Translations under genes and position numbers: made by a program
In this document: positions 7,578 through 61,218 of the stretch, piece by piece
Layout of the letters: each line of letters starts with the position of its first letter
Numbering within the stretch: position 1 is the first letter of the stretch
Assembly: GCA_964404485.1 (NCBI GenBank)
Contig: CAYOKJ010000002.1
Span: forward strand, 70-64,069
Reading direction: 5' to 3'
Origin: an uncultured Bacteroidales bacterium
GTDB lineage: Bacteria > Bacteroidota > Bacteroidia > Bacteroidales > JAIORY01
DNA: 64,000 bases
The notes under the pieces: generated by a model
Told to the model about the DNA's origin: nothing
The model's database searches: none
What the model saw: the letters and a program-made list of their open reading frames with translations, nothing else

Positions 7578-7589
7578 TCTTTTGTTTTG

Positions 7590-7795: not shown

Positions 7796-7875
7796 TTCCG
7801 AAAGCTTTCGGAATTGTGGCAAAAAAAGTAGCCACTAAGTCCCAATCCCGAAAGTTTTCGGGACTAAGAATCACT
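7796..7875. repeat. Cluster of short palindromic hairpins of the CGAAAGCTTTCG family
   Basis: TTCCGAAAGCTTTCGGAA (7796-7813), GTGGCaaaaaaagtaGCCAC, and CCCGAAAGTTTTCGGG (7847-7862). Confidence 0.6.
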
Positions 7876-7949
7876 AAGAATAATCATTGTATTTCCTTGA
7901 TTTACAGCATAAGAAAAAATATTAATAATCTAATCCAGGTTAATAAAAC

Positions 7950-8639
7950 CTAATTCACCGACACACCAATAGAAACCACACTGATTTTAATATCTGGGAT
8001 TTTGTGCAACGCCTGGGCGCAAGCTTCTATTGTTGCTCCTGTGGTTATTACATCATCAACCAACAAAACATGTTTGCATTTTAACAGCTCTTTACTATTT
8101 ACGTCGAAAATTTCATTTACATTTTCCCATCTTTTGAAGCGTGATTTTCTAGTCTGTGTTTCCGAAGCTTTTGTTCTAAAAAGAAGATCTGTTTTTATTT
8201 CAACTTTCATACCGGCAGATAATCCTATTCCAAAATACTCACTTTGGTTAAAACCTCTTTTTTTTTGCTTTTTGGGATGCAAAGGCACGGGAATTATCAA
8301 ATCAATTTCATCATATAATTTGGATTTTCTTAATTCATAAGCATAAAGTTTTCCTATTTTTACTCCTATTTGTTTTTTGCCTTTATATTTCAGCTGATGA
8401 ATTAATCGCTGCACTTTACTTCCTTTTGTGAAAAACAGAAAAGATGCAGCATTTTCAATTTTCACTCTTCCCCAGAAAATTTTGCTCACCTTATTTTCTT
8501 TCAGTAAATGAAAATTTGTTTTCGGCAAATGATACTGGCAAGGAGTACAAATTATATCTTCGTTTTGAAACAAAGAATTCCCACAGATTGCACAGGTACT
8601 TGGATAAATCAATGAGACAAAGTCTTGAAAAAAGGACAT
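7950..8639 (-). CDS. comF: ComF family protein (phosphoribosyltransferase-type)
   Basis: N-terminal Cys-rich finger (CAICGN...CTPC) and the C-terminal PRPP-binding motif VLLVDDVITTGATIEA. Confidence 0.8.
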   Translation of the reverse strand: MSFFQDFVSLIYPSTCAICGNSLFQNEDIICTPCQYHLPKTNFHLLKENKVSKIFWGRVKIENAASFLFFTKGSKVQRLIHQLKYKGKKQIGVKIGKLYAYELRKSKLYDEIDLIIPVPLHPKKQKKRGFNQSEYFGIGLSAGMKVEIKTDLLFRTKASETQTRKSRFKRWENVNEIFDVNSKELLKCKHVLLVDDVITTGATIEACAQALHKIPDIKISVVSIGVSVN

Positions 8640-9024: not shown

Positions 9025-10761
9025 ATGCCTGATTATCCGATTATAGAAATAAAGAATTTATCGGTCAGTTTTAAAACTGATAATAGCATATTAACGGCTG
9101 TTGATAATATTAGTTTTTCTCTTGAAAAAGGAAAAACACTGGGAATTGTCGGGGAGTCGGGTTCGGGAAAATCGGTTACTTCTTTATCAATTATGCAACT
9201 TGTTGATTGTCCTCCGGGAAAAATAGCAAGTGGAAATATTTTGTTTTCCGATGAAGATGTGAAGCAAACCGATCTTTTAAAACTTCCCGAAAAGGAAATA
9301 AAAAAATACCGCGGAAACAAGATAGGGATGATTTTTCAGGAACCAATGACTTCGCTTAATCCTGTTTATAAATGTGGGAAGCAAATTTCTGAATCTATTC
9401 TGCAACATCAAAAAATTTCTCATAAAAAAGCAAAGCAGAAAAGCATTGATTTACTTACAGAATTGCAACTTCCACGTCCTGAAGACATCTACAATTCTTA
9501 TCCTCATCAACTTTCGGGCGGACAAAAGCAAAGAGTGATGATTGCCATGGCTATTTGTTGTAATCCCTCAGTTTTAATTGCCGACGAGCCAACAACAGCT
9601 CTTGATGTAACTGTTCAAAAATCTATTCTTCAGCTTATCAAAGCTCTTCAAAAAAAACATGGAATGAGTGTGATTTTTATCACTCACGATCTTGGAGTTA
9701 TTGCAGAAATCGCCGATAAATTGTTAATAATGTATGATGGAAAAATTGTTGAACGGGGAGATTTAAAAGAAATTTTTCAACATCCAAAACATCCCTATAC
9801 TAAAGGTTTGCTGGCTTGTCGTCCACCAATGGATGTTCGCTTAAAAAAACTACCCGTAATAAAAGATTTTCTTAATGAAAAAAACAAAATATCTGTTGAA
9901 GCTTTCACAAAAAAACTTATCATTTCTGATGAACAACGCAAAGCAGAACAACAATCTCTTTTTGAAAAAACACCTTTATTAAGACTCAGAAATGTTAAAA
10001 CTTATTTTCCCATAAAGTCAGGGTTATTGAGGAAAACAAAAAGTATTGTAAAGGCAGTTGATGATGTAAGTTTTGATGTTTATCCTTCCGAGACTTTAGG
10101 CTTGGTTGGAGAATCGGGTTGCGGAAAAACTACTCTTGGGCGTACAATTTTAAATCTGATAAATGCTTCGGAAGGTGAAATAATTTATAAAAACAGAAAT
10201 ATTTCACAACTTTCAAAAATAGAATTAAGAAAATTAAGAAAAGATATTCAGATAATTTTTCAGGATCCATATTCTTCGCTAAACCCACGAATGACTGCCG
10301 GTTCAGCTATCATGGAACCACTTAAAGCACATAACATTTATAAAAATTATAAAGAAAGAAAAGAAAAGGTTTTTGATTTGCTTAAAAAAGTTGGCCTCGA
10401 AAAAGCACATTATTATCGTTATCCACATGAATTTTCAGGTGGTCAGCGACAAAGGATTTGCATAGCCCGTGCTTTATCACTCAAGCCTGAATTTATAATT
10501 TGTGACGAATCGGTTTCTGCTTTAGATGTTTCTATTCAAGCTCAAGTATTAAATCTGCTTAACGACCTAAAAAAGGAATTTGGTTTTACTTACATTTTTA
10601 TTTCTCACGACCTTTCTGTTGTCAAGTTTATGTCTGACAGAATGATGGTTATGAAAGACGGTAAAATACAAGAAATTGGTGATGCTGACGAAATTTATTA
10701 TCATCCGAAAACTGAATATACTAAGCAGTTGATTGATGCAATACCTAAAGGAGAATTTTAG
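9025..10761 (+). CDS. ABC transporter ATP-binding protein with two fused cassettes (oligopeptide/dipeptide DppD-DppF / YejF type)
   Basis: Walker A GESGSGKS and GESGCGKT; signatures LSGGQKQRV and FSGGQRQRI. Confidence 0.85.
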   Translation: MPDYPIIEIKNLSVSFKTDNSILTAVDNISFSLEKGKTLGIVGESGSGKSVTSLSIMQLVDCPPGKIASGNILFSDEDVKQTDLLKLPEKEIKKYRGNKIGMIFQEPMTSLNPVYKCGKQISESILQHQKISHKKAKQKSIDLLTELQLPRPEDIYNSYPHQLSGGQKQRVMIAMAICCNPSVLIADEPTTALDVTVQKSILQLIKALQKKHGMSVIFITHDLGVIAEIADKLLIMYDGKIVERGDLKEIFQHPKHPYTKGLLACRPPMDVRLKKLPVIKDFLNEKNKISVEAFTKKLIISDEQRKAEQQSLFEKTPLLRLRNVKTYFPIKSGLLRKTKSIVKAVDDVSFDVYPSETLGLVGESGCGKTTLGRTILNLINASEGEIIYKNRNISQLSKIELRKLRKDIQIIFQDPYSSLNPRMTAGSAIMEPLKAHNIYKNYKERKEKVFDLLKKVGLEKAHYYRYPHEFSGGQRQRICIARALSLKPEFIICDESVSALDVSIQAQVLNLLNDLKKEFGFTYIFISHDLSVVKFMSDRMMVMKDGKIQEIGDADEIYYHPKTEYTKQLIDAIPKGEF

Positions 10762-32126: not shown

Positions 32127-32852
32127 ATGCTTCACAAAACCCGTGGAATAGTTTTACATCAAATTAATTATTCTGAAACCAGTGTAATTGCTAAGATTTA
32201 TACTGAGCAATTTGGATTGCAATCATACATTATCAGAGGGGTTAGAAAAGCTAAATCCAAAATTAAGAGAAATTTATTACAGCATCTTTCGCCCGTTGAT
32301 ATGATTGTTTATCATAAGGAAAAAAGTAACATTCAAAATATTAAAGAGATAAAAGTAGATTTTCAATTGCAAAGCATTCCTTTTGAAATTACAAAAGGAT
32401 CAATAGCAATTTTTATTAATGAAATTTTATACAAATCGGTAAAAGAAGAAGAAGCTAATCCAAATCTTTTTGAGTTTATTTTTAATTCTGTTAAACTTCT
32501 GGATGAAACAAAAGACAAATACATAAATTTCCATTTGTTGTTTATGATACATCTTACAAAATTCCTTGGCTTTTTTCCAAGAGGGAATTATTCGCCTGTA
32601 AAAACATTTTTTGATATGGAGGAAGGTGTATTTTGTGGTAGTAAACCCTTACACGGAAATTATATTAAGGAACCCATAAGCAGGAAATTTTTCGATTTGC
32701 TGAAAACAGAATTACCTGATCACGCTTCTGTATGCCTCAACCAAAAAGAAAGGCAAGATATTCTTCAAAAGCTAATTGATTATTATTGTCTTCATCTTCC
32801 TGTTTTTAAGGGAATAAAATCACATCATATTTTAAGGGAGGTTTTGGAGTGA
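32127..32852 (+). CDS. recO: DNA repair protein RecO
   Basis: The N-terminal OB-fold region HKTRGIVLHQINYSETSVIAKIYTEQFGLQSY and the length of about 240 aa are typical. Confidence 0.75.
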   Translation: MLHKTRGIVLHQINYSETSVIAKIYTEQFGLQSYIIRGVRKAKSKIKRNLLQHLSPVDMIVYHKEKSNIQNIKEIKVDFQLQSIPFEITKGSIAIFINEILYKSVKEEEANPNLFEFIFNSVKLLDETKDKYINFHLLFMIHLTKFLGFFPRGNYSPVKTFFDMEEGVFCGSKPLHGNYIKEPISRKFFDLLKTELPDHASVCLNQKERQDILQKLIDYYCLHLPVFKGIKSHHILREVLE

Positions 32853-33202
32853 AAGGAGTTATTAATTTTAGTTTTTGGGAAAAGGCAGTAGATGATTTTT
32901 CTACATTTTACATCGAAATCGTAACTCTAAAATCACAAATCTAAAATTTTAAATCAACTTGCTTGTTATATATTTTTTATATATGTTTGTAACTTAATGT
33001 GAAGAAAATAAAAAAGTAAGCTTATTTACTCATATTGAAAAAATAAACGTAAGAGTAACTTTAGTTGGATGTTACCCACAAGCTGAAACCCCACAGCATA
33101 TTTTACACATTTGGTTTTTGCCGACACACTATTCAACCCTGAAAAAACCAAAAGAGTAAAATTCTCCCGACCTTCTTATAGATTTATATATTAAATAATA
33201 AT

Positions 33203-33253
33203 ATACAATTGTATTGTTTGTAAATATTTTAATATATCTTTGCTCTTTACAAA
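33203..33253 (+). promoter_or_regulatory. Candidate operator sites around the promoter of the XRE operon
   Basis: Perfect 12-bp palindrome ATACAATTGTAT (33203-33214). The inverted pair TTTGTAAA (33217-33224) / TTTACAAA (33246-33253) brackets the -7 box. Confidence 0.4.
33235..33242 (+). promoter_or_regulatory. -7 promoter box (TAnnTTTG) of the XRE / PHP-ATPase / AlbA_2 operon
   Basis: TATCTTTG lies 30 nt upstream of the ATG at 33272. Confidence 0.5.
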
Positions 33254-33271
33254 TTTATATCAAAGTCTAAA

Positions 33272-33490
33272 ATGGACTCTATGAATAGGATTAAAATAGT
33301 TTTAAAAGAACAAGGACGAACCCAGACTTGGTTAGCTGAAAAAATTGGAAAAAGTTTTGTTGTTGTGACCAACTATTGTAACAATAACTCCCAGCCAAGT
33401 ATTCAGGTTTTGACTAATATATCTAAAATTTTAGATGTTGATGTCCGAGAATTACTCGTTTCCACAAAAAACAATTTAAAAAATGGATAA
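33272..33490 (+). CDS. XRE/Cro-type helix-turn-helix transcriptional regulator (72 aa)
   Basis: RIKIVLKEQGRTQTWLAEKIGKSFVVVTNYCNNNSQPSIQVLTNISKILDVDVRELL is a canonical HTH_3 layout. Its stop overlaps the next start by 8 nt (ATGGATAA). Confidence 0.85.
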   Translation: MDSMNRIKIVLKEQGRTQTWLAEKIGKSFVVVTNYCNNNSQPSIQVLTNISKILDVDVRELLVSTKNNLKNG

Positions 33491-36125
33491 ACATCTAAAC
33501 ATATTCAAAAATGGAAGTTTTTGGCTAAGAGCCGATTTCCATTTACACACAAAAGCGGATAAAGAGTTTATTTATATTGGTGAAGAAAATTCCTTTATTT
33601 CATCTTATGTTGACAAGCTTGATGAGGAAAAAATCAAAGTTGCATTCATAACAAATCACAATAAATTTGATATAAATGAATATACAGCTTTATCAAAAAA
33701 GGCACTTAAGAAGGAAATATATATAATACCGGGAGTTGAACTTTCTGTAAATGACGGAGCAAATGGTATTCACTGTTTGGTAATTTTTAACCCAACAGAA
33801 TGGTTAGAAAATAATACGGATTTTATTAACCAATTTTTAACTCAAACATTTGCAGGAAAAGCAAATTACGAAAATGAAAATGGAAGGTCAAATGATAATT
33901 TAATTGAAACAATAAAAAAATTAGATGCATTTGAAAAAGACTATTTTATAATTATGGCTCACATTGAACAAACAAGTGGTTTTTTCAATGAATTTAACGG
34001 AGGAAGAATAGAAGAATTAGGGAAACAACCATTATTCCGAAAATCAGTATTAGGCTTTCAAAAAGTGCGGACACGTGATTATATAAAAAATCTCAAATTA
34101 TGGTTAGGGAATGAATTGCCAGCATTTGTTGAAGGTTCAGACCCTAAAAAGATTGATGAAATTGGGAAAGGCGAACCAACGTTTTTAAAACTTGGAGCAT
34201 ATAATTTCGAAGCAATAAAATATGCTTTGTTGGATAAGAATTTTCGTCAATCAAAATTATTAAAAAACCCAACTAATGGATATATAAAATCTATTAGTTT
34301 CAAAGGTGGTAAATTGGATGAAAATACTGTGTATTTGAATCATTCAATGAATAATTTGATAGGAATAAGAGGTAGTGGAAAATCTTCAATTTTAGAAGCC
34401 ATTCGGTACGCCTTAGATATAAGTTTAACAAAAGACCAGAATGTTGATTTTGAATATAAAAATAATTTGGTAAATGCACTTTTAAGTAGTGGTGGAAAGA
34501 TTACTTGTGTTTTGGTTGATGACCAGGGCAATGAATATAAAACAGAAAAAATATTAGGAGACAGAACAAACATATACAAAGATAATGAACTTCAATTAGG
34601 CTTAAAACCTAATGCCATTGTTAAAAAACCAATATACTTTGGGCAAAAAGACCTTTCACAAATTGGAGATTCATTATCAACAGAATACTTAATAAGCAAA
34701 CTCATAGGAGACCGATTAATAAATAAAAAACGAGAAATTGAAAACAAGAATCAAATCATCCTAAACTTATTGAATGAAATTAAAAGGGTTGATGCCAACT
34801 TAGATACTAAATCTGCATATGAAGAAAGATTGGCAGAGTTAAAATTAAAAATTCAAGTTTTTAAAGACAATGAAATTGACAAAAAACTAGAAAAACAAAT
34901 TGCCTTTGATAAAGACATAAACTTTATTAAACGAGTTGACAAATTCGAGGTTAAAATCATTGATGCTTTAGATGAATTTATTCAAGAATATGATGATGGA
35001 TTTGACAACTTTAAAACGTACGTATCTAAAGAAAATATAACGGATATAGAAAAAGTTTCTCAATCGTTAATCTCTTTTGAAAAAATATTTGATGATTTAA
35101 GAAACATCATAATTTCACTTATTACTAAAAATAAAGAACTCACAGAAACCCAAAAAGGTTTTACAAACAAATACAATGAATTAAAAGAAGAGTTTTCAAA
35201 CATTAAAAGAGACATAAAACTTCCAAATATTCAAGCAGATGACTATGTAAAATACACTAAAGAACTCGATTTAACGAAAGCACAACTTTCTGAACTAGAG
35301 AAGCTTTCCAAAAAGAAAAATGAATTACAGACTCAGCTTGAACAATCATTAGTTTCTCTTCAAGGATTATGGCATAACGAATTTGAAATCATTCAGGATG
35401 AAATTAGAAAGGTTAATTATGGTCAACCTCTTGTTGTTATAAATGGACAAGAGATTCCCGTAATCAAGATAAAAGTTGATTTCAAAAAAAATACAGATAA
35501 TTTTAAATCATATTTAAAAGAAAATCTCAGGGGGAGCAATCTTAGGGATAATAATATTCAAACTATAATTGATAACTATTCTGATTTAATTAGCGTCTTC
35601 AATGATTTCTCAATTGAAAATAGCAATATTCAAAATAGTTTATCAGAAACACAACTTCATACCTTTAAGGAGTATTTCAAATCTAATATTGGAGCCTTTT
35701 TAACCTATCGAATTCCTGATAAGTTCGAAATCATATACAGAGGACGCCCTCTAAACGTACATTCACTAGGACAAAGAGCATCAGCTTTAATTATTTTCTT
35801 GCTCACTTTGAAAGATAGTGACTTAATTATTATTGACCAACCAGAAGATGATTTGGATAACCAAACTATTTACAATGATGTTATCAAAGTCTTAAAAGAG
35901 TTAAAGAATACGTCACAGTTTATCTTTGCCACACACAACCCAAACATTCCTGTTTTGGGAGACTGTGAGCAAATCATCTCTTGTAAATATCACTCCAATT
36001 CAATTCAAACTGATTTAGGAAGTATTGATGATGAAACAATACGAAAAAAGATTGTGAATATTATGGAAGGTGGAGAAGAAGCATTTAATAATAGAAAAAT
36101 AATTTACGAATTATGGAAGCATTAG
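33483..36125 (+). CDS. PHP-family phosphoesterase fused to an SMC/Rad50/SbcC-like ABC ATPase with a long coiled-coil insert (Ppl-like candidate defence protein)
   Basis: PHP ligand candidates H20-x-H22 (ADFHLHT), H59 (ITNHN), E86 (GVELS), H97 and H160. Walker A GIRGSGK300SS. About 350 aa of heptad-rich K/E/L sequence. Signature-like S761-LGQR, Walker B LIIID785QPE788DDLD, and H-loop FATHN. Confidence 0.7.
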   Translation: MDKHLNIFKNGSFWLRADFHLHTKADKEFIYIGEENSFISSYVDKLDEEKIKVAFITNHNKFDINEYTALSKKALKKEIYIIPGVELSVNDGANGIHCLVIFNPTEWLENNTDFINQFLTQTFAGKANYENENGRSNDNLIETIKKLDAFEKDYFIIMAHIEQTSGFFNEFNGGRIEELGKQPLFRKSVLGFQKVRTRDYIKNLKLWLGNELPAFVEGSDPKKIDEIGKGEPTFLKLGAYNFEAIKYALLDKNFRQSKLLKNPTNGYIKSISFKGGKLDENTVYLNHSMNNLIGIRGSGKSSILEAIRYALDISLTKDQNVDFEYKNNLVNALLSSGGKITCVLVDDQGNEYKTEKILGDRTNIYKDNELQLGLKPNAIVKKPIYFGQKDLSQIGDSLSTEYLISKLIGDRLINKKREIENKNQIILNLLNEIKRVDANLDTKSAYEERLAELKLKIQVFKDNEIDKKLEKQIAFDKDINFIKRVDKFEVKIIDALDEFIQEYDDGFDNFKTYVSKENITDIEKVSQSLISFEKIFDDLRNIIISLITKNKELTETQKGFTNKYNELKEEFSNIKRDIKLPNIQADDYVKYTKELDLTKAQLSELEKLSKKKNELQTQLEQSLVSLQGLWHNEFEIIQDEIRKVNYGQPLVVINGQEIPVIKIKVDFKKNTDNFKSYLKENLRGSNLRDNNIQTIIDNYSDLISVFNDFSIENSNIQNSLSETQLHTFKEYFKSNIGAFLTYRIPDKFEIIYRGRPLNVHSLGQRASALIIFLLTLKDSDLIIIDQPEDDLDNQTIYNDVIKVLKELKNTSQFIFATHNPNIPVLGDCEQIISCKYHSNSIQTDLGSIDDETIRKKIVNIMEGGEEAFNNRKIIYELWKH

Positions 36126-37270
36126 AATTATTAGACTTAATACATAAAGGAGAATCCAGTGAAGTTCAATTTAAGATACGGGTCAATGATGCGTATAAAA
36201 CAGGAACTGAAATGGTTGCATTTTCAAATACAAAAGGAGGATTATTAATAATCGGAATTGATGATAAAACTGGAGATATAAATGGATTATCTTACGAAGA
36301 ACTTCAGGAAACTAATCAATTATTAGCAAATGCAGCATCAGATAATGTTAAACCTCCCATTTACATTTATACCGAGACAGTTGAAATAAGTGACAAAAAA
36401 GTAGTCGTTGCTCGAATTTCAGAAGGAATTAGTAAACCTCACACGGATAACAAAGGTATTATTTGGGTTAAGAATGGTTCTGACAAAAGAAAAGTTGTTG
36501 CTAGAGAAGAAATGGCAAGGCTATTACAAAGTAGTGGTAATTTATTTGCTGATGAAACAATAGTTAATGGTACCACTATAAACGATATTAATGAAGATTT
36601 TTTTAAAAACTTTATAAAATCAAAAACCAAGAAGTCTATTGATGAATTAGGACTGTCCATTTCGGGAATGTTGTCGAATATGGGAATGCTCAAAGATGGA
36701 AATTTATCTCTTGGGGGGTTACTTCTATTTGGGAAAAACCCGCAACAATATAGACCTGCTTTCACAATACAATGTGTGTCAATTGCTGGGAATGATATTA
36801 GTTCAAATGATTACAGAGATAAAGAAGACCCATTTATAGGAAACCTTCAAGAGCTTTATGATAAAACCCTTTCTTTTATTACCCGAAACTTAAAGAAAAT
36901 ACAAAAAGAAGAAAGTTTTAATTCACCATCAGTTCTCGAATTACCAATTGAAACTATTGAGGAACTCCTTGTTAATGCTTTGGTTCATAGAGATTATTTC
37001 ATTCTTTCAAGCATTAAGGTTTTTATTTTCGACAATCGGGTAGAAATAATAAGCCCCGGAATATTACCTAATACATTGACAATTGAGAATATTAAAGTTG
37101 GCACCTCAATTCAGAGAAACCCAATGTTATATTCAAACTCAAGATATGTTCTTCCATTTTTTGGTGTTGGTAGCGGAATACCCAGAGCATATGAAAATGT
37201 ACCGGATTTAGAATTAATTAATGATATTGATAGAGAACTCTTTATTTCAATAATCAAACGGAATAGTTAA
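36113..37270 (+). CDS. AlbA_2 (Schlafen-like 'divergent AAA') plus HATPase_c_4 domain protein (COG2865-like), lacking a C-terminal wHTH
   Basis: N-terminus GESSEVQFKIRVND...EMVAFSNTKGGLLIIGIDDKTGDINGL fits AlbA_2. C-terminus ELLVNALVHRDYF...RVEIISPGILPN...SIQRNPML...GVGSGIPR fits HATPase_c_4. The start overlaps the upstream stop by 13 nt. Confidence 0.7.
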   Translation: MEALELLDLIHKGESSEVQFKIRVNDAYKTGTEMVAFSNTKGGLLIIGIDDKTGDINGLSYEELQETNQLLANAASDNVKPPIYIYTETVEISDKKVVVARISEGISKPHTDNKGIIWVKNGSDKRKVVAREEMARLLQSSGNLFADETIVNGTTINDINEDFFKNFIKSKTKKSIDELGLSISGMLSNMGMLKDGNLSLGGLLLFGKNPQQYRPAFTIQCVSIAGNDISSNDYRDKEDPFIGNLQELYDKTLSFITRNLKKIQKEESFNSPSVLELPIETIEELLVNALVHRDYFILSSIKVFIFDNRVEIISPGILPNTLTIENIKVGTSIQRNPMLYSNSRYVLPFFGVGSGIPRAYENVPDLELINDIDRELFISIIKRNS

Positions 37271-37579
37271 AAAATGAAACCAACACCAAAAGCCATACAC
37301 ATTGTCAAGTCGCTCGAAAAAGCCAACCGCACTTGCCAAAACTTGTCAATAAGTATGGCTTTGCTAACCACACGAAAAAAAACAGCCAGTGGGTAACAAA
37401 ACCTATACGTAATGCGAGGTTCAGAACTAAATTGAAAGATTATGCAAGCACTGAAATATCGTCATAAAAATATAGTGAAGTGCTTCGGAAACCCGCACTA
37501 CGCATAGCCAAATCATTTGCATATTAATATATTATCTTCTTCCATCTTTACATTTATCATTATTATAAAGAAATAAGAA

Positions 37580-37612
37580 AAATCCTCCAGATTTTTAAAA
37601 TCTGGAGGATTT
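37580..37612. terminator. Perfect bidirectional hairpin terminator about 310 nt downstream of the AlbA_2 gene
   Basis: AAATCCTCCAGATTTT / AAAATCTGGAGGATTT is a perfect inverted repeat flanked by A/T runs. Confidence 0.6.
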
Positions 37613-37651
37613 GCCGAAATAACAAATTTTTCATTTCAAAAAATATTCTTA

Positions 37652-37668
37652 GAATCTGTGGCAATTTT
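37652..37668. repeat. Solo copy of the GAATCTGTGGCAATTTT REP-like motif
   Basis: The 16-mer AATCTGTGGCAATTTT is identical to the right arm at 47470-47485. Related motifs occur at 513-532, 1097-1114 and 54607-54620. Confidence 0.6.
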
Positions 37669-37902
37669 AAAATTTATACTTTCTCTCCAAAAAGAAGAAT
37701 AAAATTTTCTTTCACTAAACATTTCAATTAATTAATATTAATTCATCACTAATGACATTTTGTAAGGTGCAGACAGTAAGGTTAATGAACAGTTTGTTGT
37801 AAAAAAAGCCAAGGTATAACTTTATAAAAGAACAATATATTAAAGTAATACGTTTAAAAAAATTCATTGTTTCCCAAATGGTAATGGCAGACATTCGAGA
37901 AT

Positions 37903-38064
37903 AATGGCAGATATTATTATTGAATCAATTTTTAATAAAGATATATTTACTTGGAATAACTCAAATATGGTGAAACCGGATAAAATACGAAAAAACTATA
38001 TTGTTGCAATTAAAGAGGCTGATAATGGAAATATTAACCCATTGATAGAATTTGCAAGAAATTG
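37903..38064 (+). pseudogene. Short remnant resembling the C-terminal tail of a Fic/DOC-family protein
   Basis: My translation is MADIIIESIFNKDIFTWNNSNMVKPDKIRKNYIVAIKEADNGNINPLIEFARN*. The R..Y..A...AD.G....L..F pattern is the usual end of Fic-type proteins. No Fic core (HPFxxGNGR) lies upstream. TAATGGCAGA is duplicated at 37881 and 37901. Confidence 0.35.
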
Positions 38065-38133
38065 AAAACGTATTAAAAAGAGGAAAATGAATTTCTGTAA
38101 AAAGTAAAATATCGGCTAATCTATTATAAAGTC

Positions 38134-38817
38134 TTATTTTAAACTTTGATTAAACAATCTAAAAAAATTCTCTTTCACCAAGTTTTTCACCTCCCCAAAA
38201 TCAAGTTTTTCACCAAGTTCTTTTTCCATAGAAGTCACACCTTTATCTGTAAAACCGCAAGGATTTATATAATTATAATAATTAAGATCTGTGTTTACAT
38301 TAAATGCAAACCCATGCATTGTAATCCACCTGCTTGCTTTTACACCGATAGCACATATCTTTCGTGCTTTAAGTTTATTGTGGGTGTCAATCCAAACTCC
38401 TGTAGCTCCTTCAAGGCGTTCAGCATTTATATTATAATTTTTTAAAGTCAGAATAATTACTTCTTCAAGTTGAAAAATATATTTTTTAACTCCCAACGAA
38501 AAAGCCTCAAGATTGATAATTGGATAACCAACAATTTGTCCCGGTCCGTGATAAGTAATATCTCCCCCTCTGTTTATTTTAAAAAACGAAACACCTTTTT
38601 TTTGTAATTCAAAATTGTTTAATAAAAGATTATTTTCCGACCCACTTTTGCCAATTGTATAAACATTAGAATGTTCGCAAAACAATAAATAATTTGGAAT
38701 TTCTTTGTTCTGACTTTTCAACTCCAGAGATTCCTTAAACAGTTTTTCCTGAAAATCCCATGCTTTTTTATATTCGATCAAGCCAAGATCCATGAATATT
38801 ATTTCTTTATTTCTCAT
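38134..38817 (-). CDS. lipB: Lipoyl(octanoyl) transferase
   Basis: NRGGDITYHGPGQIVGYPI and KICAIGVKASRWITMHGFAFNV are catalytic-region motifs. Confidence 0.9.
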   Translation of the reverse strand: MRNKEIIFMDLGLIEYKKAWDFQEKLFKESLELKSQNKEIPNYLLFCEHSNVYTIGKSGSENNLLLNNFELQKKGVSFFKINRGGDITYHGPGQIVGYPIINLEAFSLGVKKYIFQLEEVIILTLKNYNINAERLEGATGVWIDTHNKLKARKICAIGVKASRWITMHGFAFNVNTDLNYYNYINPCGFTDKGVTSMEKELGEKLDFGEVKNLVKENFFRLFNQSLK

Positions 38818-54890: not shown

Positions 54891-55135
54891 GAAACCCAGT
54901 TACATAAAACAAACTGATTAGAAAATTGCAAAATCGAATAGACAAAATATTAGCACTGATTGAAACTTACTGCAAGAAAAAATTAGTTTTTGCCGACCCG
55001 CTTTTGCCCTTCGGGACAATTAGGGAAGCCTGCCCACAAATAGCACATTTGTTTTTTGCCAACGCTAAAATCCAAACGCAAAAAAACAAAAGAGCTATTT
55101 CTTTCCATCACACAATAAATATGTACTTTTAGAGC

Positions 55136-57532
55136 ATGGTAAAGAAACTTATAATCATAAACCAAGATAGTGAAGCGGATACATGCAGAAAAGAAGTAAC
55201 ACCAAAGCTTTATCATGCTAATTGGAGTGATGAACAAATATTAGAACAAAGAACTTTTACCGATGGAAAAATAGTTGTACTTGGAAGAAAAGCGAGACGA
55301 AAAAAGGGAAAAAGAGCTGATTATATTCTTAGATACAAAACAGATTATCCGATTGCTGTAATTGAAGCAAAAAAGAAATATACCAAAGCAGCCGATGGAC
55401 TACAACAAGCTAAAGATTATGCTGAAATTTTGGGATTAAACTTTGCTTATGCATCAAATGGTGTTGAAATTATTGAATATGATTTTACAACAGGATTAGA
55501 AAGTAAAATAATTAACTTCCCTACACCCGAAGAACTCTGGAAAAGAGAATCAATAAAAGAAAATATTGATGAATCAATACAAGAAACTTTATTAAAACCA
55601 TTTCATTCTTTTGCAAGTAAAAAGCCAAGATATTATCAAACAATTGCAATTAACAGAGCAGTTAAAAAGATTTTAGAAGGCAAAAAAAGATTGTTATTAA
55701 CAATGGCAACAGGGACAGGAAAAACAACTGTTTCATTTCAAATTATTTATAAATTATGGAATAATCGATGGAATCAAAGAAATGACCATCGCAGACCTAA
55801 AATATTATTTATTGCAGACCGAAGCATATTAGTTAATGACCCTCATTCAAAGGATTTTGCAATATTTGGCGATGCAAGATGTTTAGTCCCTGACGAAGGG
55901 ATTGTAACAAGTCGTGAGATATATTTTTCAACTTATCAATCACTTGCTGAATATGAAAGTAAAGAAGGAAATTTTAGGAAATTTCCAAGAGACTTTTTCG
56001 ATATGATTATAATTGATGAGTGTCATAGAGGAAGTGCATCTGATGAAAGCAATTGGAGGAAAATTTTAGACTATTTTACAGAATCAGTTCACTTGGGATT
56101 AACAGCAACGCCACTTAGAGAAGATAATAGAGACACCTACGAATATTTCGGAAATCCGATTTACACATACAGTTTAAAACAAGGAATTGATGACGGATTT
56201 CTTGCTCCTTACATTGTTCACCGAATTGTAACCGAAGCTGATGCAACCGGATGGCGACCAGAAAAAGGACAAGTTGATGCACGAGGAAATGAAATTGCAG
56301 ACGGAATTTACACAACAACTGATTTTGAAAGAACATTATCCTTACTTCCGCGAACAAAAGCGGTTGCCAAACACTTGGCAGATTACATGACTAAAAATGG
56401 CAGATACAGCAAAACAATTGTTTTTTGCGTTGATCAGGAACATGCCGACCATATGCGAAGGGAGTTAAACAACTTAAATTCAGATATTACAAAAGATTAT
56501 CCAAATTACATTGTTCGCATTGTTTCAGAGGAAGGAGACGTAGGAAAAGGTCATTTGAGTGATTTTATGGATATTGACGAGGAATTTCCTGTAATTGTTA
56601 CAACTTCAAAGCTTTTGAGTACTGGAGTATATATTCCAACTTGTGCAAATATAGTTTTATTCAGAAACATAAATTCAATGACTGAATTTAAACAGATTAT
56701 TGGTCGTGGCACAAGAGTAAGAGAAGATAAAGGAAAACTATTTTTTACAATTTTAGATTATACAGGTAGTGCATCAAGAAATTTTGTTGACCCTGATTTT
56801 GATGGTGAACCACCATTGATTACAAATGAAGAAATTGACGAACAAGGACAAACCATTGAAGGTACTTTTGAGGAAGAAATAAACGAAACCGAAGAAATTG
56901 ACAATTGGGATGAACCTACAGAAACAGATTTTGAGAATATTCCAGATAATGAAGAAAACGACAGACCTCGTAAATATTATGTAGAAGAAGGAATCCTGTC
57001 AATTGTTGCTGAAACAGTTCAGATTTTAGATAGTCAGGGGAAACTACAGACAATCCAATATAGAAAATACACTAAAGACAAAATCTCAAATCTTTACCCA
57101 TCAGCAAATGAGTTTAAAAAAGCGTGGTTAGATTTAAACATTAGAAGGAACATAATTTCACAACTTGAAGAACAAGGCATTTTAATTGAAGATTTGAAAA
57201 AAATCACAAAACTTGTTGATGTTGACGCCTTTGATTTATTGCGTTATGTGGCTTTCGATTTGAAACCTTTAACCAGAAAACAACGAGCTAATTTACTTTT
57301 AAAAAATAAAGCTGATTTATTTTCTGAATATTCCGAAGGTGCAAGAGAAATTATCGAAATCATTATCTCAAAATATGTTGATTTTGGCATAGACCAGTTG
57401 AAACCTGAAATTATTCAGGTAGAACCAATTTCAAGCAAGGGAAATATTTTGGAAATTGCCGACAGATTTGGAGGGATTGACAAATTCAAAACACTAATAA
57501 ACGAATTACAAAAACAATTATACGCAGCGTAA
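55136..57532 (+). CDS. hsdR: Type I restriction enzyme R subunit (EcoEI/EcoAI-like, with an EcoEI_R_C-type C-terminal domain)
   Basis: N-terminal PD-(D/E)xK motif (RADYIL...VIEAKK), SF2 motor motifs MATGTGKT and IIDECHRGSA, TATP, QIIGRGTR, and C-terminal LLRYVAFD... Confidence 0.9.
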   Translation: MVKKLIIINQDSEADTCRKEVTPKLYHANWSDEQILEQRTFTDGKIVVLGRKARRKKGKRADYILRYKTDYPIAVIEAKKKYTKAADGLQQAKDYAEILGLNFAYASNGVEIIEYDFTTGLESKIINFPTPEELWKRESIKENIDESIQETLLKPFHSFASKKPRYYQTIAINRAVKKILEGKKRLLLTMATGTGKTTVSFQIIYKLWNNRWNQRNDHRRPKILFIADRSILVNDPHSKDFAIFGDARCLVPDEGIVTSREIYFSTYQSLAEYESKEGNFRKFPRDFFDMIIIDECHRGSASDESNWRKILDYFTESVHLGLTATPLREDNRDTYEYFGNPIYTYSLKQGIDDGFLAPYIVHRIVTEADATGWRPEKGQVDARGNEIADGIYTTTDFERTLSLLPRTKAVAKHLADYMTKNGRYSKTIVFCVDQEHADHMRRELNNLNSDITKDYPNYIVRIVSEEGDVGKGHLSDFMDIDEEFPVIVTTSKLLSTGVYIPTCANIVLFRNINSMTEFKQIIGRGTRVREDKGKLFFTILDYTGSASRNFVDPDFDGEPPLITNEEIDEQGQTIEGTFEEEINETEEIDNWDEPTETDFENIPDNEENDRPRKYYVEEGILSIVAETVQILDSQGKLQTIQYRKYTKDKISNLYPSANEFKKAWLDLNIRRNIISQLEEQGILIEDLKKITKLVDVDAFDLLRYVAFDLKPLTRKQRANLLLKNKADLFSEYSEGAREIIEIIISKYVDFGIDQLKPEIIQVEPISSKGNILEIADRFGGIDKFKTLINELQKQLYAA

Positions 57533-57535
57533 TAA

Positions 57536-59071
57536 ATGGCAAAAAAAGAGACTAAAACAACAGCACAAAGATTATCGGGGATTGTAAAATCGTGCCGGCA
57601 AATAATGAGGAAAGACAAAGGTTTGAATGGTGATGCTGACCGTTTGCCAATTCTTACATGGATAATGTTTTTGAAGTTTTTAGATGACAACGAAAAAATT
57701 CATGAATCGGAAGCATTATTAAAAAGCAAAACTTTTAAACCAACATTAAAAAATCCTTATCGCTGGAGAGATTGGGCAAAAGACACAAACCTAACCGGAG
57801 ATGATTTATTGCCATTCATAAATAATGAAAAAGCCACCTTCCCTGATGGTACAGAGGGAACAGGTTTATTCTACTATTTAAGAAGTTTGCAAAGTGAAAG
57901 CGGAAAAGAAAGAGCCGATGTAATTTCAACCGTTTTCAAAGGAATTAACAATCGAATGATAAATGGTTATTTGCTTCGTGATGTTGTAAATAAAATAGAT
58001 GAAATACAATTTACATCAAACGAAGAGATTTATACACTATCGCATTTGTACGAAAGTATTTTAAAAGAAATGCGTGATGCTTCGGGTGATGCAGGAGAAT
58101 TTTATACACCAAGACCAGTAGTTCAATTCATGGTAAATATGATAAATCCTCAATTGGGCGAAACTGTACTTGACCCCGCATCAGGCACAGGTGGCTTTCT
58201 TGTGGCTGCGTTTGAGCATTTGAAAAAGCAAGCCAAAACTTTAGAACAATTCAAAGTTTTACAAAAACAATCGGTAATTGGTGGAGAAGCAAAGCCGTTA
58301 CCATATTTATTGGTTCAAATGAACCTGCTATTACACGGCTTAGAATATCCACAAATTGACCCTTTAAACTCATTGCGTTTTAAGTTGCAGGAGATTGGCG
58401 ATAGTGAGCGTGTAGATACAATTATTACAAATCCACCATTTGGGGGTGAAGAAGAAAAAGGAATCCTAAATAATTTCCCGAAAGGCAAACAAACCACCGA
58501 AACAGCATTTCTATTTCTTCAACTTATCATGCGAAAGTTAAAACGTAAAAAGGCAGAACAAAAAGGCGGAAGGGCTGCCGTTGTAGTTCCCAATGGAACT
58601 CTGTTTGCTGATGGCGTGGCAAACCGAATAAAAAAGCAATTAGTAGAAGATTTCAATTTACACACAATAGTCCGTTTGGGCGATGGGGTTTTTGCACCAT
58701 ATACCGATATTCCTTCAAATCTATTGTTTTTTGAACATGGAAAGCCAACAAAAGAAATTTGGTATTATGAAATTTCTGTTCCTGAAGATAAAAAGAAATA
58801 CAGTAAAACAAAGCCAATACAAAATGAAGAATTTACTGAGATAAGCCAATGGTGGAACGATAGAAAAGAAACAGAATGGGCTTGGAAAGTAAACATAAAT
58901 GATATTGTAAAAGAGAACGGAAATGGCTCTGTATCTGTAAACCTTGACATAAAAAACCCAAATCGTAAAAGTGAATTTGAATATCAGGAACCATCAAAAC
59001 TGATTTCTTCGATAGTTGAAAGGGAAAAGGAAATTTTAAAACTAATGGAAGAAATACAATCAGGAATATGA
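57536..59071 (+). CDS. hsdM: Type I restriction-modification N6-adenine DNA methyltransferase M subunit
   Basis: Motif I DPASGTGGFL, motif IV NPPFGG, and an HsdM_N-type N-terminus. It starts 4 nt after the hsdR stop. Confidence 0.9.
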   Translation: MAKKETKTTAQRLSGIVKSCRQIMRKDKGLNGDADRLPILTWIMFLKFLDDNEKIHESEALLKSKTFKPTLKNPYRWRDWAKDTNLTGDDLLPFINNEKATFPDGTEGTGLFYYLRSLQSESGKERADVISTVFKGINNRMINGYLLRDVVNKIDEIQFTSNEEIYTLSHLYESILKEMRDASGDAGEFYTPRPVVQFMVNMINPQLGETVLDPASGTGGFLVAAFEHLKKQAKTLEQFKVLQKQSVIGGEAKPLPYLLVQMNLLLHGLEYPQIDPLNSLRFKLQEIGDSERVDTIITNPPFGGEEEKGILNNFPKGKQTTETAFLFLQLIMRKLKRKKAEQKGGRAAVVVPNGTLFADGVANRIKKQLVEDFNLHTIVRLGDGVFAPYTDIPSNLLFFEHGKPTKEIWYYEISVPEDKKKYSKTKPIQNEEFTEISQWWNDRKETEWAWKVNINDIVKENGNGSVSVNLDIKNPNRKSEFEYQEPSKLISSIVEREKEILKLMEEIQSGI

Positions 59072-60066
59072 GTAAATCAAAAATAAACGAAATAGCTATT
59101 TACGAAACCGAAGATGGTCAGGTAAAAGTTGGTGTCCTGTTTGAGCAAGACAATCTTTGGCTTACCCAGAAACTAATGGCAGAACTTTTTGAATGTAGTG
59201 TTGATAATATTTCTTTACACTTAAAAAACATATTTAAAGACAATGAATTGGATAAGAAATCAGTTGTCGAGGATTACTCGGTAACTGCATCCGATGGCAA
59301 ATCATACAAAACAAAGCACTACTCTCTTGAAGCAATTATTGCAGTTGGATACCGTATAAACACTACAAGAGGCACACAGTTTAGAACATGGGCAACAGAC
59401 AAATTAAAAAGTTACATCTTTAAAGGTTTTGCCATAGACAAAGACCGGTTTATAAAAGGAAGCAGATTTGATGCACGGTTTTTTGATGACTTACTAGAAG
59501 AGATAAGAGAAATTCGGGCAAGCGAAAGAATGGTATATCAGAAAATAACTGATATTTACGTAACTTCGGTTGATTACTCTACCGACACATTAGAAACCGA
59601 CCGCTTTTTTGCAACGGTACAAAACAAACTTCATTTTGCCATAACAGGAAATACTGCTGCCGAAATAATATCTGAAAGAGCCAATAGCATTAAAGAGAAT
59701 ATGGGCTTGACCACTTGGCGAAAAGCACCAAAAGGCAAAATTTACAAAAGTGATGTTACCATTGCCAAAAACTATTTGCAGAAAGCAGAAATAAAAAAAC
59801 TGAACCACATTGTAGATATGTATCTTGATTATGCTGAGTTTCAGGCAAGCAAAGCCAAACCAATGTACATGAAAGATTGGGCAGTGAAATTAGATGCCTT
59901 TTTACAATTTAACGAAGAAGAAATACTTAATGATAAAGGAAAAATATCAAAAGTAGTTGCAGCAGAACTTGCTGTAAGAGAATACGAAGCGTTTAGAATA
60001 AAGCAAGACCAAAATTATATTTCCGACTTTGACAAGGCTGTAAAACAATTAAAAAAGAAGTCTTGA
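59068..60066 (+). CDS. RhuM-family protein embedded in the type I R-M operon
   Basis: IAIYETEDGQVKVGVLFEQDNLWLTQKLMAELFECSVDNISLHLKNIF...AVGYRINTTRGTQFRTWAT matches the conserved RhuM N-terminal region. ATGA overlap with hsdM. Confidence 0.7.
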   Translation: MSKSKINEIAIYETEDGQVKVGVLFEQDNLWLTQKLMAELFECSVDNISLHLKNIFKDNELDKKSVVEDYSVTASDGKSYKTKHYSLEAIIAVGYRINTTRGTQFRTWATDKLKSYIFKGFAIDKDRFIKGSRFDARFFDDLLEEIREIRASERMVYQKITDIYVTSVDYSTDTLETDRFFATVQNKLHFAITGNTAAEIISERANSIKENMGLTTWRKAPKGKIYKSDVTIAKNYLQKAEIKKLNHIVDMYLDYAEFQASKAKPMYMKDWAVKLDAFLQFNEEEILNDKGKISKVVAAELAVREYEAFRIKQDQNYISDFDKAVKQLKKKS

Positions 60067-61217
60067 TGAAGAAGGATTGGAATAAATATAAGATTGGTGA
60101 TATTTTATTTCGAGTTAAAGACTCCTTTAATCTTAGTGAGCTTGAAGAATATAAAAGAGTTACAGTAAGAGGAAAGGGTGTTGGTGTTTCCATGCGAGAT
60201 ACAGCAAAAGGTTTAAATATTGGTACAAAAAGACAATTCAGAGTAAGGTCAAATCAATTTTTGATTTCGAAGATTGATGCCATGAATGGTGCTTATGGAA
60301 TAATACCAGATGAATGTGACAATGCTATTATTACAGGAAATTTTTGGACTTATAATTTTGATGGAAATGTATTATTAAAAGAATACTTACATTATTTATC
60401 AATTGCTTGTTTGTTTACGGATTTCAGTAAAAGAGCAAGTTCAGGAACTACAAACAGAAAATATCTTGATGAAGGTAAATTTTACAATCTTGAAATTGAG
60501 TTACCCTCACTTCCCGAACAGAAACGAATTGTAAAAATAATCAAGTCGGTTGAGGCGAAAAGGCAAAACATTAATAAACTGAATAAGGAGCAGGAAAGAG
60601 AGATAAAAAACATATTGTACAGCACTTACATTGATATAATCAAAGATGCTGAATATAAACCAATGGTAGAGGTTGCACCAATAATCAGACGACCTGTTAA
60701 TATTAGTGCAGAAGAAAAATATCCTGAATTGGGAATTAGATGTTTTGGAAATGGAACTTTTCATAAACCTGCTTTAAGCGGAATAGAAGTTGGCACAAAA
60801 AAACTTTTTCAAATAAAAACAGGCGATTTGGTTTTTAGTAATGTGTTTGCATGGGAAGGAGGAATTGCCGTAGCAAAAGAGGAAGATAACGACCGTTACG
60901 GTTCACACCGTTTTATTTCATGCAATTGCAATTTAGAACAGGTAAAACCATTATTTCTAAGCTTTCATTTTCTTGCACCAAAAGGCTTAGAAGAAATTAA
61001 CAACTGTTCACCAGGTGGAGCAGGTAGAAACAAAACATTAGGGCTTAAAAAACTTGAAGCATTAAAAGTTCCTGTTCCAAAAATTGATAAACAAAGAAAA
61101 TTTGAAAACTTATTGAATCAATTCAATCAACTTAAAGAACAAAGAGAAGAAAGAGAAAAGGAATTGACAAAACTAATTCCTAGTTTGTTGGACAAAGCAT
61201 TTAAAGGAGAATTGTAA
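60066..61217 (+). CDS. hsdS: Type I restriction-modification specificity subunit
   Basis: Two target-recognition domains are separated by the conserved helical spacer LPSLPEQKRIVKII...; the C-terminus carries the matching VPVPKIDKQRKFENLL... The ATG overlaps the rhuM TGA by 1 nt. Confidence 0.85.
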   Translation: MKKDWNKYKIGDILFRVKDSFNLSELEEYKRVTVRGKGVGVSMRDTAKGLNIGTKRQFRVRSNQFLISKIDAMNGAYGIIPDECDNAIITGNFWTYNFDGNVLLKEYLHYLSIACLFTDFSKRASSGTTNRKYLDEGKFYNLEIELPSLPEQKRIVKIIKSVEAKRQNINKLNKEQEREIKNILYSTYIDIIKDAEYKPMVEVAPIIRRPVNISAEEKYPELGIRCFGNGTFHKPALSGIEVGTKKLFQIKTGDLVFSNVFAWEGGIAVAKEEDNDRYGSHRFISCNCNLEQVKPLFLSFHFLAPKGLEEINNCSPGGAGRNKTLGLKKLEALKVPVPKIDKQRKFENLLNQFNQLKEQREEREKELTKLIPSLLDKAFKGEL

Positions 61218-61218
61218 A

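Follow-up and report, generated by a model that had tools for sequence, protein, structure and literature searches.

What is an operon of a small regulator, a large ATPase and a Schlafen-like protein doing between two housekeeping genes of a Bacteroidales chromosome? The question is raised by a stretch of 64,000 nucleotides from an uncultured Bacteroidales bacterium (GenBank assembly GCA_964404485.1, contig CAYOKJ010000002.1, positions 70 to 64,069 of the forward strand), called here the window and numbered from its first letter. Between recO (32127-32852, plus strand) and lipB (38134-38817, minus strand), it carries three overlapping open reading frames on the plus strand. These encode a 72-residue XRE/HTH_3 controller (33272-33490), an 880-residue protein, TrlF (33483-36125), in which a PHP-like phosphoesterase N-terminus is fused to an SMC/Rad50-like ATP-binding cassette (ABC) ATPase with a coiled coil of about 250 residues, and a 385-residue protein, TrlG (36113-37270), joining an AlbA_2 (Schlafen-fold) domain to a GHKL-like HATPase_c_4 domain. 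The overlaps, of 8 nt between the first two genes (ATGGATAA) and 13 nt between the last two, are those given by an earlier sequence-only reading, which took the operon for a candidate defence system built on an undescribed, obligate pairing with a dedicated XRE gene. As judged by full-length alignment, the last two genes are homologues of trlF and trlG, and the operon belongs to a Bacteroidota branch of an already known family. What is new here is its setting: in Bacteroidota, the trl operon is, by comparison of its ends, an integron-like cassette of about 4.4 kb, inserted in the window between recO and lipB, with co-varying ends, an attC-like site, and a leader and XRE gene shared with restriction-modification (R-M) cassettes.

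That the locus is an accessory insertion, as had been supposed, follows from a relative of the window's organism (L140), whose gene order is PorZ-RecO-158 bp-LipB-LipA, with the operon absent. Two close relatives by RecO (L125 and L126) stop right after recO and are uninformative on this point. The window's copy of the operon is free of frameshifts.

The trlF-trlG pair and its relatives

In 2020, Hapeshi et al. described in Photorhabdus laumondii a "temperature restriction locus" (TRL) of three genes between polA and dsbA: trlR, encoding a small regulator, trlF, annotated as a histidinol phosphatase, and trlG, mis-annotated as recG (Hapeshi et al., 2020, Front Microbiol 11:548800; PMC7554251). 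The operon blocks growth above about 35 °C and its transcription goes up on a temperature upshift; its deletion confers tolerance, and complementation brings the restriction back. Mutations in trlG relieve the arrest at 36 °C, and spontaneous temperature-tolerant mutants fall in trlG only, with none in trlF among about 20 independent ones. The Photorhabdus TrlG protein carries AlbA_2 at residues 14-128 and HATPase_c_4 at residues 298-365. According to the same authors, the distribution of TRL is patchy (21 of 46 Photorhabdus and 12 of 1,218 Vibrio cholerae genomes) and the operon is conserved in other genera (Hapeshi et al., 2020).

The window's proteins align with these from end to end, TrlF at 40% identity over residues 6-879 and TrlG at 46% over its full length. 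The 880-residue protein also matches the NCBIfam family TrlF_fam_ATP (NF045780, "TrlF family AAA-like ATPase"), scoring 513.2 bits over residues 10-875 where the cutoff is 350. Since the core pair belongs to the TRL family, the pairing thought to be undescribed had in fact been described, and NCBI already names the family TrlF. One of the loci compared, from Photorhabdus (L095), reproduces the order polA-trlR-trlF-trlG-dsbA and matches all 13 published wild-type residues. Nine of the ten missense loss-of-function sites lie in invariant or nearly invariant columns (S16, V35, A36, A75, R126, P318, S331, N335, and G354), and the window's TrlG keeps all nine of these residues. The Photorhabdus loss-of-function changes strike the AlbA_2 motif (S16N, V35I, A36V) as well as the glycine-rich and Asn motifs of the GHKL part (N335D, G354V). 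The window's operon thus resembles the TRL of Photorhabdus in gene order, short overlaps, the AlbA_2 (residues 14-128) and HATPase_c_4 (about 300-367) composition of TrlG, and its accessory insertion between housekeeping genes; it differs in its regulator, its Bacteroidota host, resembling a metagenome-assembled genome (MAG), and its attC-like cassette.

How constant is the pair? Of the 33 loci anchored on TrlF at 40% identity or more, 29 have a trlG gene directly downstream, a synteny far beyond chance. It extends across phyla, in support of the AlbA_2 partner proposed in the sequence-only reading. All 20 Bacteroidota-type loci (66-88% identity) have it, with an overlap of about 10 nt, and 19 of the 20 have an XRE gene directly upstream whose product is 76-91% identical to the window's. 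Nitrospirota, Brocadia, and Nitrospinota keep the pair as well, with 57% identity, as do Bacteroidales and Desulfobacula with about 40%. Overlapping trlF and trlG genes are seen in Bacteroidota, Nitrospirota, Planctomycetota, Desulfobacterota, Proteobacteria, and others, and TrlF falls into 452 clusters at 50% identity. From the side of TrlG, whose relatives occur in at least 575 species genomes, the picture is different: among the best 80 TrlG loci, 62 could be assessed, and trlF is directly upstream in 39 and missing in 23. The pairing is therefore not obligate for the AlbA_2 partner.

In the four TrlF loci of about 40% identity without trlG, the upstream gene is instead a superfamily 1 (SF1) helicase fused to a nuclease-type domain. 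This TrlG-less clade (L028, L029, L033 at 4568-8002, and L031 at 5075-7834) has a large helicase (AAA_11/AAA_12) with an RNase_H_2/RecB-like domain or DUF2726, encoded by a gene overlapping trlF in L028, L029, and L033; a partner swap seems to have taken place. Among the Schlafens of eukaryotes, those of group III join AlbA_2 to an SF1 helicase. The solo TrlG-like genes (L045 at 7001-8158, L047, L052, L114 at 6965-8485, and 19 other loci) include some 65-75% identical to the window's TrlG and some coding for 500-600 residues; that of L047 is pseudogenised, while that of L114 lies between hsdR and hsdS in a Type I R-M operon. Bacteroidota-type trl cassettes or leaders also occur on short contigs of MAGs assigned to Izemoplasmatales (L015), Clostridia (L207), Limnohabitans (L214), and Oceanicaulis (L219), reflecting either binning contamination or cross-phylum transfer. 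Two unannotated "Listeria phage" records of 18-20 kb (OR846775.1 and OR848124.1; hits H31 and H32) encode a full-length TrlF homologue with 41% identity.

Contrary to what had been claimed, the XRE gene does not serve this pair exclusively. The regulator of the window belongs to HTH_3 (2.2e-10), whereas TrlR of Photorhabdus and of Yersinia plasmid pYR3 belongs to HTH_73 (5e-25 and 9e-31), as does the regulator in V. cholerae, and the IncC, Aeromonas, and Pseudomonas copies have HTH_17. A tblastn search with the window's regulator met no match in the Photorhabdus locus. By these family assignments, the upstream regulator is non-orthologous between lineages and has been swapped; moreover, close homologues of the window's XRE protein, behind the same leader, head R-M cassettes.

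The 880-residue protein had also been likened to Ppl, which Gao and colleagues are said to have reported in 2020 as a single-gene anti-phage system of PHP and ATPase. The relationship is real, and so is the distance. Both have a PHP-like N-terminus, an ABC/SMC-like ATPase, and a coiled coil, and there are partial matches to the Ppl profiles of PADLOC (3e-35) and NCBIfam (4.6e-50). A plain Ppl membership was rejected, the NCBIfam Ppl model (NF042955) scoring 170.5 bits against a cutoff of 1000. The window's protein sits in a sister family, TrlF, which is nearly always coupled to TrlG or, in one clade, to the SF1 helicase-nuclease.

The TrlF and TrlG proteins

The operon structure read from the sequence alone holds, and Pfam profiles recover most of the domains. 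In TrlF they identify AAA_21, SMC_N, and AAA_23, with PHP weak. In the AlphaFold2 model of the protein, a beta/alpha N-domain (residues 13-237) precedes an ABC head that is interrupted by long antiparallel helices (397-645), with a small inserted domain. Foldseek matches it to the heads of MukB, Smc, JetC, Rad50, condensin, and RecF (1.6e-11 to 1e-6), in a search dominated by the ATPase part and not by the N-domain. All the ABC motifs are invariant: Walker A (GIRGSGKSS), the Q-loop (Q388), the signature (SLGQ), and the H-loop (H818). With these motifs and a head split by a coiled coil, TrlF is, as modelled, an SMC/Rad50-like ABC ATPase. The invariant residues include H20/H22, H59, E86, H97, and H160, in addition to K300, Q388, S761-Q764, D785-Q786, and H818. 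The PHP scores of the window's protein are below threshold, yet when homologous N-termini are scanned singly, PHP ranks first among Pfam families in 10 of 11.

The Walker B motif of TrlF reads IIIDQPEDDLD, and its alignment by HMMER to the SMC protein of Thermotoga maritima places D785-Q786 on the Asp-Glu of SMC. The canonical Asp-Glu pair with its catalytic glutamate is thus not found in TrlF, which has Gln at that position, and as Q786 aligns with the SMC catalytic Glu the TrlF family would carry a natural glutamine there. Q786 is invariant in 35 TrlF sequences, and E788 stands two residues further on (window 35835-35846 for D785-E788); the choice of E788 as Walker B catalytic residue, made in the sequence-only reading, may therefore be wrong. 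In ABC ATPases, a change from Glu to Gln allows ATP-driven engagement of the heads but slows hydrolysis. The alignment suggests that TrlF could be a slow ATP switch rather than a motor.

TrlG matches SLFN_AlbA_2 (2.8e-22) and HATPase_c_4 (3.6e-12). Its model resembles the uncharacterised structure 3LMM over the whole length (3.5e-16). Its N-domain alone is matched to the AlbA_2 domains of SLFN5, SLFN11, SLFN12, SLFN13, SLFN14, and SAMD9 (6e-5 to 4e-3, Schlafen probability 1.0), and its C-terminal half to GHKL kinases and ATP-binding domains. On the strength of this model, the N-domain has the AlbA_2/Schlafen core fold. Its motif is GE14-SSEV-Q19-F-K21...AFSNTKGGLLIIGIDDK (window 36152-36175 for E14-K21), to be compared with the SLFN11 segment PESQLVEFK...AFANTGGGYLFIGVDDK, verified in PDB chains. 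SLFN11 requires E209, E214, and K216, and Schlafens lacking one of the E/E/K residues are nuclease-deficient (PMC9482658). In TrlG, the Schlafen catalytic pattern E-x4-E-F-K is replaced by E-x4-Q-F-K, with Q19 at the position of SLFN11 E214 by motif alignment, not superposition. Q19 is invariant in 35 TrlG sequences, while E14 and K21 are kept. As far as this alignment goes, TrlG retains the Schlafen fold and part of the site, without one metal ligand. The candidacy of TrlG as a canonical Schlafen RNase effector is weakened accordingly, the invariant Q19 arguing against a simple enzyme of that type.

The likeness to the Schlafen/SAMD9 proteins (SLFN11, 12, 13, 14) therefore covers the N-terminal fold, the AFxNTxGG...IGVxD motif, and the first Glu and the Lys of E-x4-X-F-K, and the Schlafen side brings with it antiviral and growth-arrest biology. 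The differences are the Gln in place of E214 and the partner domain, which is GHKL-like in TrlG instead of an SF1 helicase. With a glutamine at the canonical place of a catalytic glutamate in both proteins, TrlF and TrlG may be switches or binders rather than turnover enzymes.

The cassette, its edges and its leader

Where does the operon end? Among Bacteroidota copies with unrelated neighbours, conservation extends about 200 nt upstream of the operon and about 260 nt beyond it. The left edge of this conserved block (33070-33085, plus strand, TGTTACCCACAAGCTG), with GTT as its R'-like core, recurs in reverse complement at 37383-37398; the two are the sole matches to the motif in the window. 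In nine cassettes the edges co-vary: under a pairing derived by eye from these same nine sequences, 92.7% of the cells are paired and nine of 14 pairs are doubly changed, while none of 500 shuffles does as well and slid controls reach 24-50%. An edge of GTT followed by about 12 variable nucleotides is present in most of the leader-bearing loci.

The right-hand end is occupied by an attC-like structured site of 148 nt (37383-37530, plus strand), made up of an R''-like edge (CAGCCAGTGGGTAAC) and an imperfect hairpin of about 105 nt. In relatives, the site follows the pattern [12 nt]AAC-NNNG-TATA...TATAC-N4-6-CGTT[12 nt], often several times per locus; the window's site lacks the downstream CGTT edge. 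The covariance model R1 scores the window's site at 98.3 bits (E = 4.6e-21), the sole strong one there; over 142 fetched loci it detects 165 sites, which share one orientation and form tandem arrays. When 23 sites are folded to a consensus, AAC and GTT pair in an outer stem, followed by a brief spacer and then a long stem with bulges, and 10 of the 18 pairs show compensatory double changes. Rfam has no match in 32800-38200. The arrays comprise 11 sites in Tamlana (L009), seven in Winogradskyella (L005), at least 10 in L151, and eight in L270, against a single site in the window; other array loci are L030, L019, L001, L263, L265, L253, and L257. Typical cassettes measure 0.45-1.2 kb, and the trl operon occurs within such arrays as one cassette of about 4.4 kb. 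Adjacent cassettes have their own mutually complementary ends, such as GTTAGGCACAAT.../...ACTGTGCCTAAC.

Two hairpins lie inside these edges. The leader hairpin (33100-33162, plus strand, CACATTTGGTTTTT...AAAAACCAAAAGAG; DNA fold -11 kcal/mol, z = -4.5) has been conserved from one trl cassette to another. The downstream hairpin, or inverted repeat I2 (37289-37362, plus strand; -13.5 kcal/mol, z = -2.9), is conserved in type-A right flanks and has CACATT(T)G / CAA(A)AGAG-type arms, as in the leader. The sequence-only reading had seen an orphan terminator and REP debris around the operon; this was partly wrong, the two hairpins and the attC-like site being conserved parts of the cassette.

Ordinary transposon ends were also considered, as inverted repeats 4.3 kb apart. 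Local alignments per locus are individually non-significant, and a crude 13-mer test on non-trl cassettes did no better than its controls (nine loci against 11 and eight). The covariation of the aligned edges and the site between cassettes led to the cassette reading, which explains the ends better. A simple one-site insertion predicts outer flanks complementary to each other (B' upstream, B downstream); none were found, the flanks belonging to neighbouring cassettes of the array.

The resemblance to integrons is considerable. Integrons have been reported in Bacteroidota, off-target insertion can give solo cassettes, and integron cassettes are defence reservoirs, small and mostly promoterless. 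Like integron cassettes, attC sites, and clusters of attC sites lacking integron-integrases (CALINs), the present system has an outer AAC/GTT core pair, an unpaired spacer, a long imperfect bulged stem, co-oriented tandem arrays, complementary cassette ends, and defence cargo, and the window's solo cassette at a non-array site resembles an off-target insertion. Unlike them, the trl cassette is 4.4 kb long and carries three genes under a promoter and regulator of its own; the end complementarity covers about 14 nt instead of 7, and IntI was not found beside the arrays. As no integron integrase was found in the window or beside the fetched arrays, the system is called integron-like, and not an integron. 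Two related loci, L243 and L264, do encode Xer/IntI-like recombinases (TIGR02249, 215-232 bits, short of the integron-integrase cutoff of 265; NF040815, 230-233 bits against 220), and neither has a site matching the covariance model.

The head of the cassette carries its control elements. The predicted promoter box, TATCTTTG (33235-33242, plus strand), is of the Bacteroidota -7 type, whose consensus is TAnnTTTG. It lies about 30 nt upstream of the XRE start, where a shared promoter had been proposed, and is kept 5' of the XRE gene in nearly all Bacteroidota copies. Just upstream, a palindromic element (33199-33216, plus strand, TAATATACAATTGTATTG, consensus CAATAcAtaatTaTATTG), whose position and symmetry are kept in an upstream alignment of 20 cassettes, is a candidate XRE operator. 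The leader core (CACATTTGKTTTTTGCCRAC) occurs twice in the window where none would be expected by chance, its second copy (55044-55094) preceding a Type I R-M cluster of HsdR, HsdM, RhuM, HsdS, and a 711-residue GHKL protein. In Bacteroidota genomes there are at least 120 exact matches to the leader core, each with an open reading frame 80-175 nt downstream (leader loci L163-L281), and 19 of these loci open with a close homologue of the window's XRE protein. In about 55 of 89 leader loci, a DNA methylase or a restriction helicase is encoded by the first large gene, the main Pfam families being N6_Mtase (22), ResIII (13), C5 DNA_methylase (11), and N6_N4_Mtase (9); further cargo domains are MmeI, TIR, and STAND. 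Because they are common to R-M cassettes, the XRE gene and the leader can be viewed as a portable controller module of defence cassettes. As with the controller (C) proteins of R-M systems, a small HTH_3 gene comes first, a palindrome stands at its own promoter, and homologues head R-M cassettes; the operator is a predicted one, the nearest PDB relatives of the window's protein are SinR, HipB, and uncharacterised XRE proteins, and the likeness is one of arrangement only.

Proposed working, rival explanations and neighbouring features

trlFG repeatedly keeps defence-like company, in line with the sequence-only reading of the operon. In one form, HTH_17-hsdR-trlF-trlG-hsdS-AAA_13-hsdM, the genes of a Type I R-M operon overlap by 4 nt. 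The HTH_17-hsdR-trlFG arrangement is found beside Tn7-like genes on the IncC plasmid pNDM102337, in integrase-borne islands of Aeromonas and Escherichia coli, and in an integrative and conjugative element (ICE) of Pseudomonas aeruginosa. V. cholerae has HTH_73-hsdM-hsdS-trlF-trlG-hsdR; in Nitrospirota, trlFG stands between a Type III-like methylase gene (Mod) and a Res/endonuclease gene; in Desulfobacula it adjoins JetC/JetD. One Bacteroidota copy has an IS110 transposase on either side, and AbiEii and an MmeI-type enzyme in its vicinity. The pair is carried by 54 plasmids, 34 of them conjugative. Among 5,426 complete E. coli genomes, 38 (0.7%) have its IncC-type form, with at least 98.7% identity and always beside a Type I R-M system. 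Copies of the pair from different taxonomic orders hardly differ in sequence. In hsd-trlFG operons of Proteobacteria (L040 at 9435-10550; L152-L162), an ATPase of about 370 residues of the AAA_13 family, which includes PrrC/RloC-type proteins, always lies between hsdS and hsdM, so these R-M operons carry two extra ATPase modules.

From this context and from the growth arrest seen in Photorhabdus, it is on balance probable that trlF-trlG forms an abortive-infection or anti-mobile-element module that would arrest growth when triggered. The XRE protein would bind the palindrome adjoining the -7 box and so repress its own promoter, keeping the toxic genes low, as conservation of the element suggests. 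TrlF, presumably a dimeric SMC/Rad50-like ATPase with a fused PHP-like domain and a slow ATP switch, could be a DNA-binding sensor or a nuclease. TrlG would be the growth-arresting effector, a role shown genetically in Photorhabdus which needs the AlbA_2 motif and the ATP-lid motifs of the GHKL part; it would probably act by ATP-dependent binding or clamping of nucleic acid, or with a catalytic centre that has changed, rather than as a Schlafen RNase of the canonical kind. TrlF would probably restrain or license TrlG, and such restraint would explain why trlF mutants went unrecovered in Photorhabdus even though trlF is the longer gene by a factor of more than two. A division of labour in these terms, with XRE as repressor, TrlF as sensor, and TrlG as effector, is a doubtful proposition. 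PrrC and RloC, the ABC-ATPase anticodon nucleases of Type I R-M loci, offer a parallel: an ATPase suicide module between hsd genes. The analogy suggests that trlFG might be a guard firing when restriction is neutralised. TrlFG differs in being a two-protein system without an anticodon-nuclease domain, stand-alone in the window, and the likeness comes from gene context, not sequence.

Several observations weigh against a defence module of this design. The literature searched yielded no experiment in which a TRL locus was challenged with phage or plasmid, and the sole experimental phenotype, the temperature-dependent growth arrest, was not tied to defence by its authors (Hapeshi et al., 2020). 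PADLOC 2.0 holds no model for the trlF-trlG pair. Some copies, the window's included, lie among housekeeping genes without adjacent defence genes, the window's Type I R-M system being 18 kb off, and TrlG-like genes often occur solo. The lack of trlF mutants may have other causes, and we infer the roles of sensor and effector. The PHP assignment has an E-value of 0.003 for the whole protein and 1.9e-4 for the N-terminus (18-22 bits, under the gathering score of 26.4), and the PHP profile found no match among PDB sequences. The models of TrlF and TrlG are of moderate confidence, with a predicted local distance difference test (pLDDT) score of 75 and 72, respectively. Regarding the cassette, phmmer searches with island integrases met no tyrosine recombinase in the window or beside the fetched arrays.

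Could the module be a governor of growth instead? This is the view of the TRL authors: a stress or temperature switch halting replication, for example for synchrony with the host or to limit insertion sequences, with no role against phages. The rise of transcription on upshift, the growth at 36 °C after operon deletion or trlG mutation, and the restriction restored by complementation all speak for it (Hapeshi et al., 2020). A physiological switch is however hard to reconcile with so patchy a distribution (21/46 Photorhabdus, 12/1,218 V. cholerae, 38/5,426 E. coli), with near-identical copies in different orders, and with a module found on plasmids, in ICEs and cassettes, and inside R-M operons; moreover, many defence and toxin systems autoactivate when hot, and we infer that the temperature phenotype may be autoimmunity. 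The governor is thus quite improbable. An addiction or stabilisation module, with TrlG as toxin and TrlF, the XRE protein, or both as antidote, stabilising arrays, plasmids, and islands without any anti-phage activity, is unlikely too, though less so. It would account for the arrest caused by TrlG and the unrecovered trlF mutants, for a promoter and regulator that typical cassettes lack, and for the frequency of the pair on conjugative plasmids. The proteins are nevertheless very large and multi-domain for a toxin-antitoxin pair, they are repeatedly inserted in R-M operons and not in plasmid maintenance regions, and their single-gene relative Ppl, named in NCBIfam and PADLOC, is reported to be anti-phage; in any case, addiction and defence are mutually compatible.

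The translational coupling of trlFG in hsd operons of E. coli, Klebsiella, Aeromonas, Pseudomonas, and Vibrio, its place between Mod and Res in Nitrospirota, and the PrrC/RloC-type AAA_13 ATPase in the same operons raise another question: are TrlF and TrlG R-M accessory subunits, working only with Type I or III complexes as an extra nuclease or PrrC-like guard, so that the window's copy would be a relic? The stand-alone Photorhabdus copy is functional (Hapeshi et al., 2020), and about 20 Bacteroidota cassettes are intact, 66-94% identical, with all motifs and their own regulator, the window's copy being unframeshifted; we consider this as improbable as the governor. Hardly credible at all is a DNA-repair complex working for the benefit of the cell, a single-chain analogue of SbcCD/Mre11-Rad50 whose PHP nuclease would act on hairpins or breaks. 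The Rad50/SMC/RecF-like fold with its fused phosphoesterase and the recO gene next door in the window would suit it, but the module has an accessory distribution and spreads horizontally, other copies do not share the recO neighbourhood, a relative has recO-lipB without the operon, and the effect of the module is growth arrest, not protection (Hapeshi et al., 2020).

An abortive module of this kind can be placed in a wider frame. Here trlFG would be a widespread, uncatalogued, R-M-linked abortive module, with a Schlafen-fold/GHKL effector bearing a glutamine in its site and a PHP-SMC-like sensor with Glu changed to Gln in Walker B; in Bacteroidota it would form a large, self-regulated cassette of a previously unrecognised integron-like family of defence cassettes, sharing a hairpin leader and XRE gene with R-M systems. 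Taken whole, this fuller reading is possible and held with less than even confidence. Common as the TRL pair is, on IncC resistance plasmids, in Pseudomonas ICEs, and in islands of Vibrio and E. coli, one paper alone reports a phenotype for it and PADLOC 2.0 does not include it; the trl operon is a good and tractable candidate for such an R-M-linked abortive system. If it is one, immunity would gain two components, a Schlafen-fold effector of bacteria and a fused nuclease-SMC sensor, the temperature limit of Photorhabdus would be reread as autoimmunity, and the E. coli strains and plasmids that carry trlFG would provide a direct experimental handle. The architecture of cassette and leader is the more surprising result than the operon itself: attC-like arrays with a shared leader point to a Bacteroidota cassette system stockpiling large R-M and defence operons, which would carry the idea of integrons as defence biobanks past the small promoterless cassettes of Proteobacteria.

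Beyond the right end of the cassette, between the attC-like site and lipB, lies a Fic-family remnant (37844-38065, reading ...KKIHCFPNGNGRHSRIMADIII...). The Fic-like tail reported earlier is therefore genuine: the motif HCFPNGNGRHSR is intact at 37865-37900, with stop codons before it. Also outside the cassette, a perfect 16-bp palindrome (AAATCCTCCAGATTTT/AAAATCTGGAGGATTT, 37580-37612; fold -14.6 kcal/mol, z = -6.75) is terminator-like, serves no obvious gene, and may be what the sequence-only reading called an orphan terminator. The second defence cluster of the window (55136-63354) follows trkA/trkH and comprises the Type I R-M genes for HsdR, HsdM, RhuM, and HsdS together with that of the 711-residue protein, whose GHKL (HATPase_c_3) matches are weak; its far end lies at or past the window's edge.

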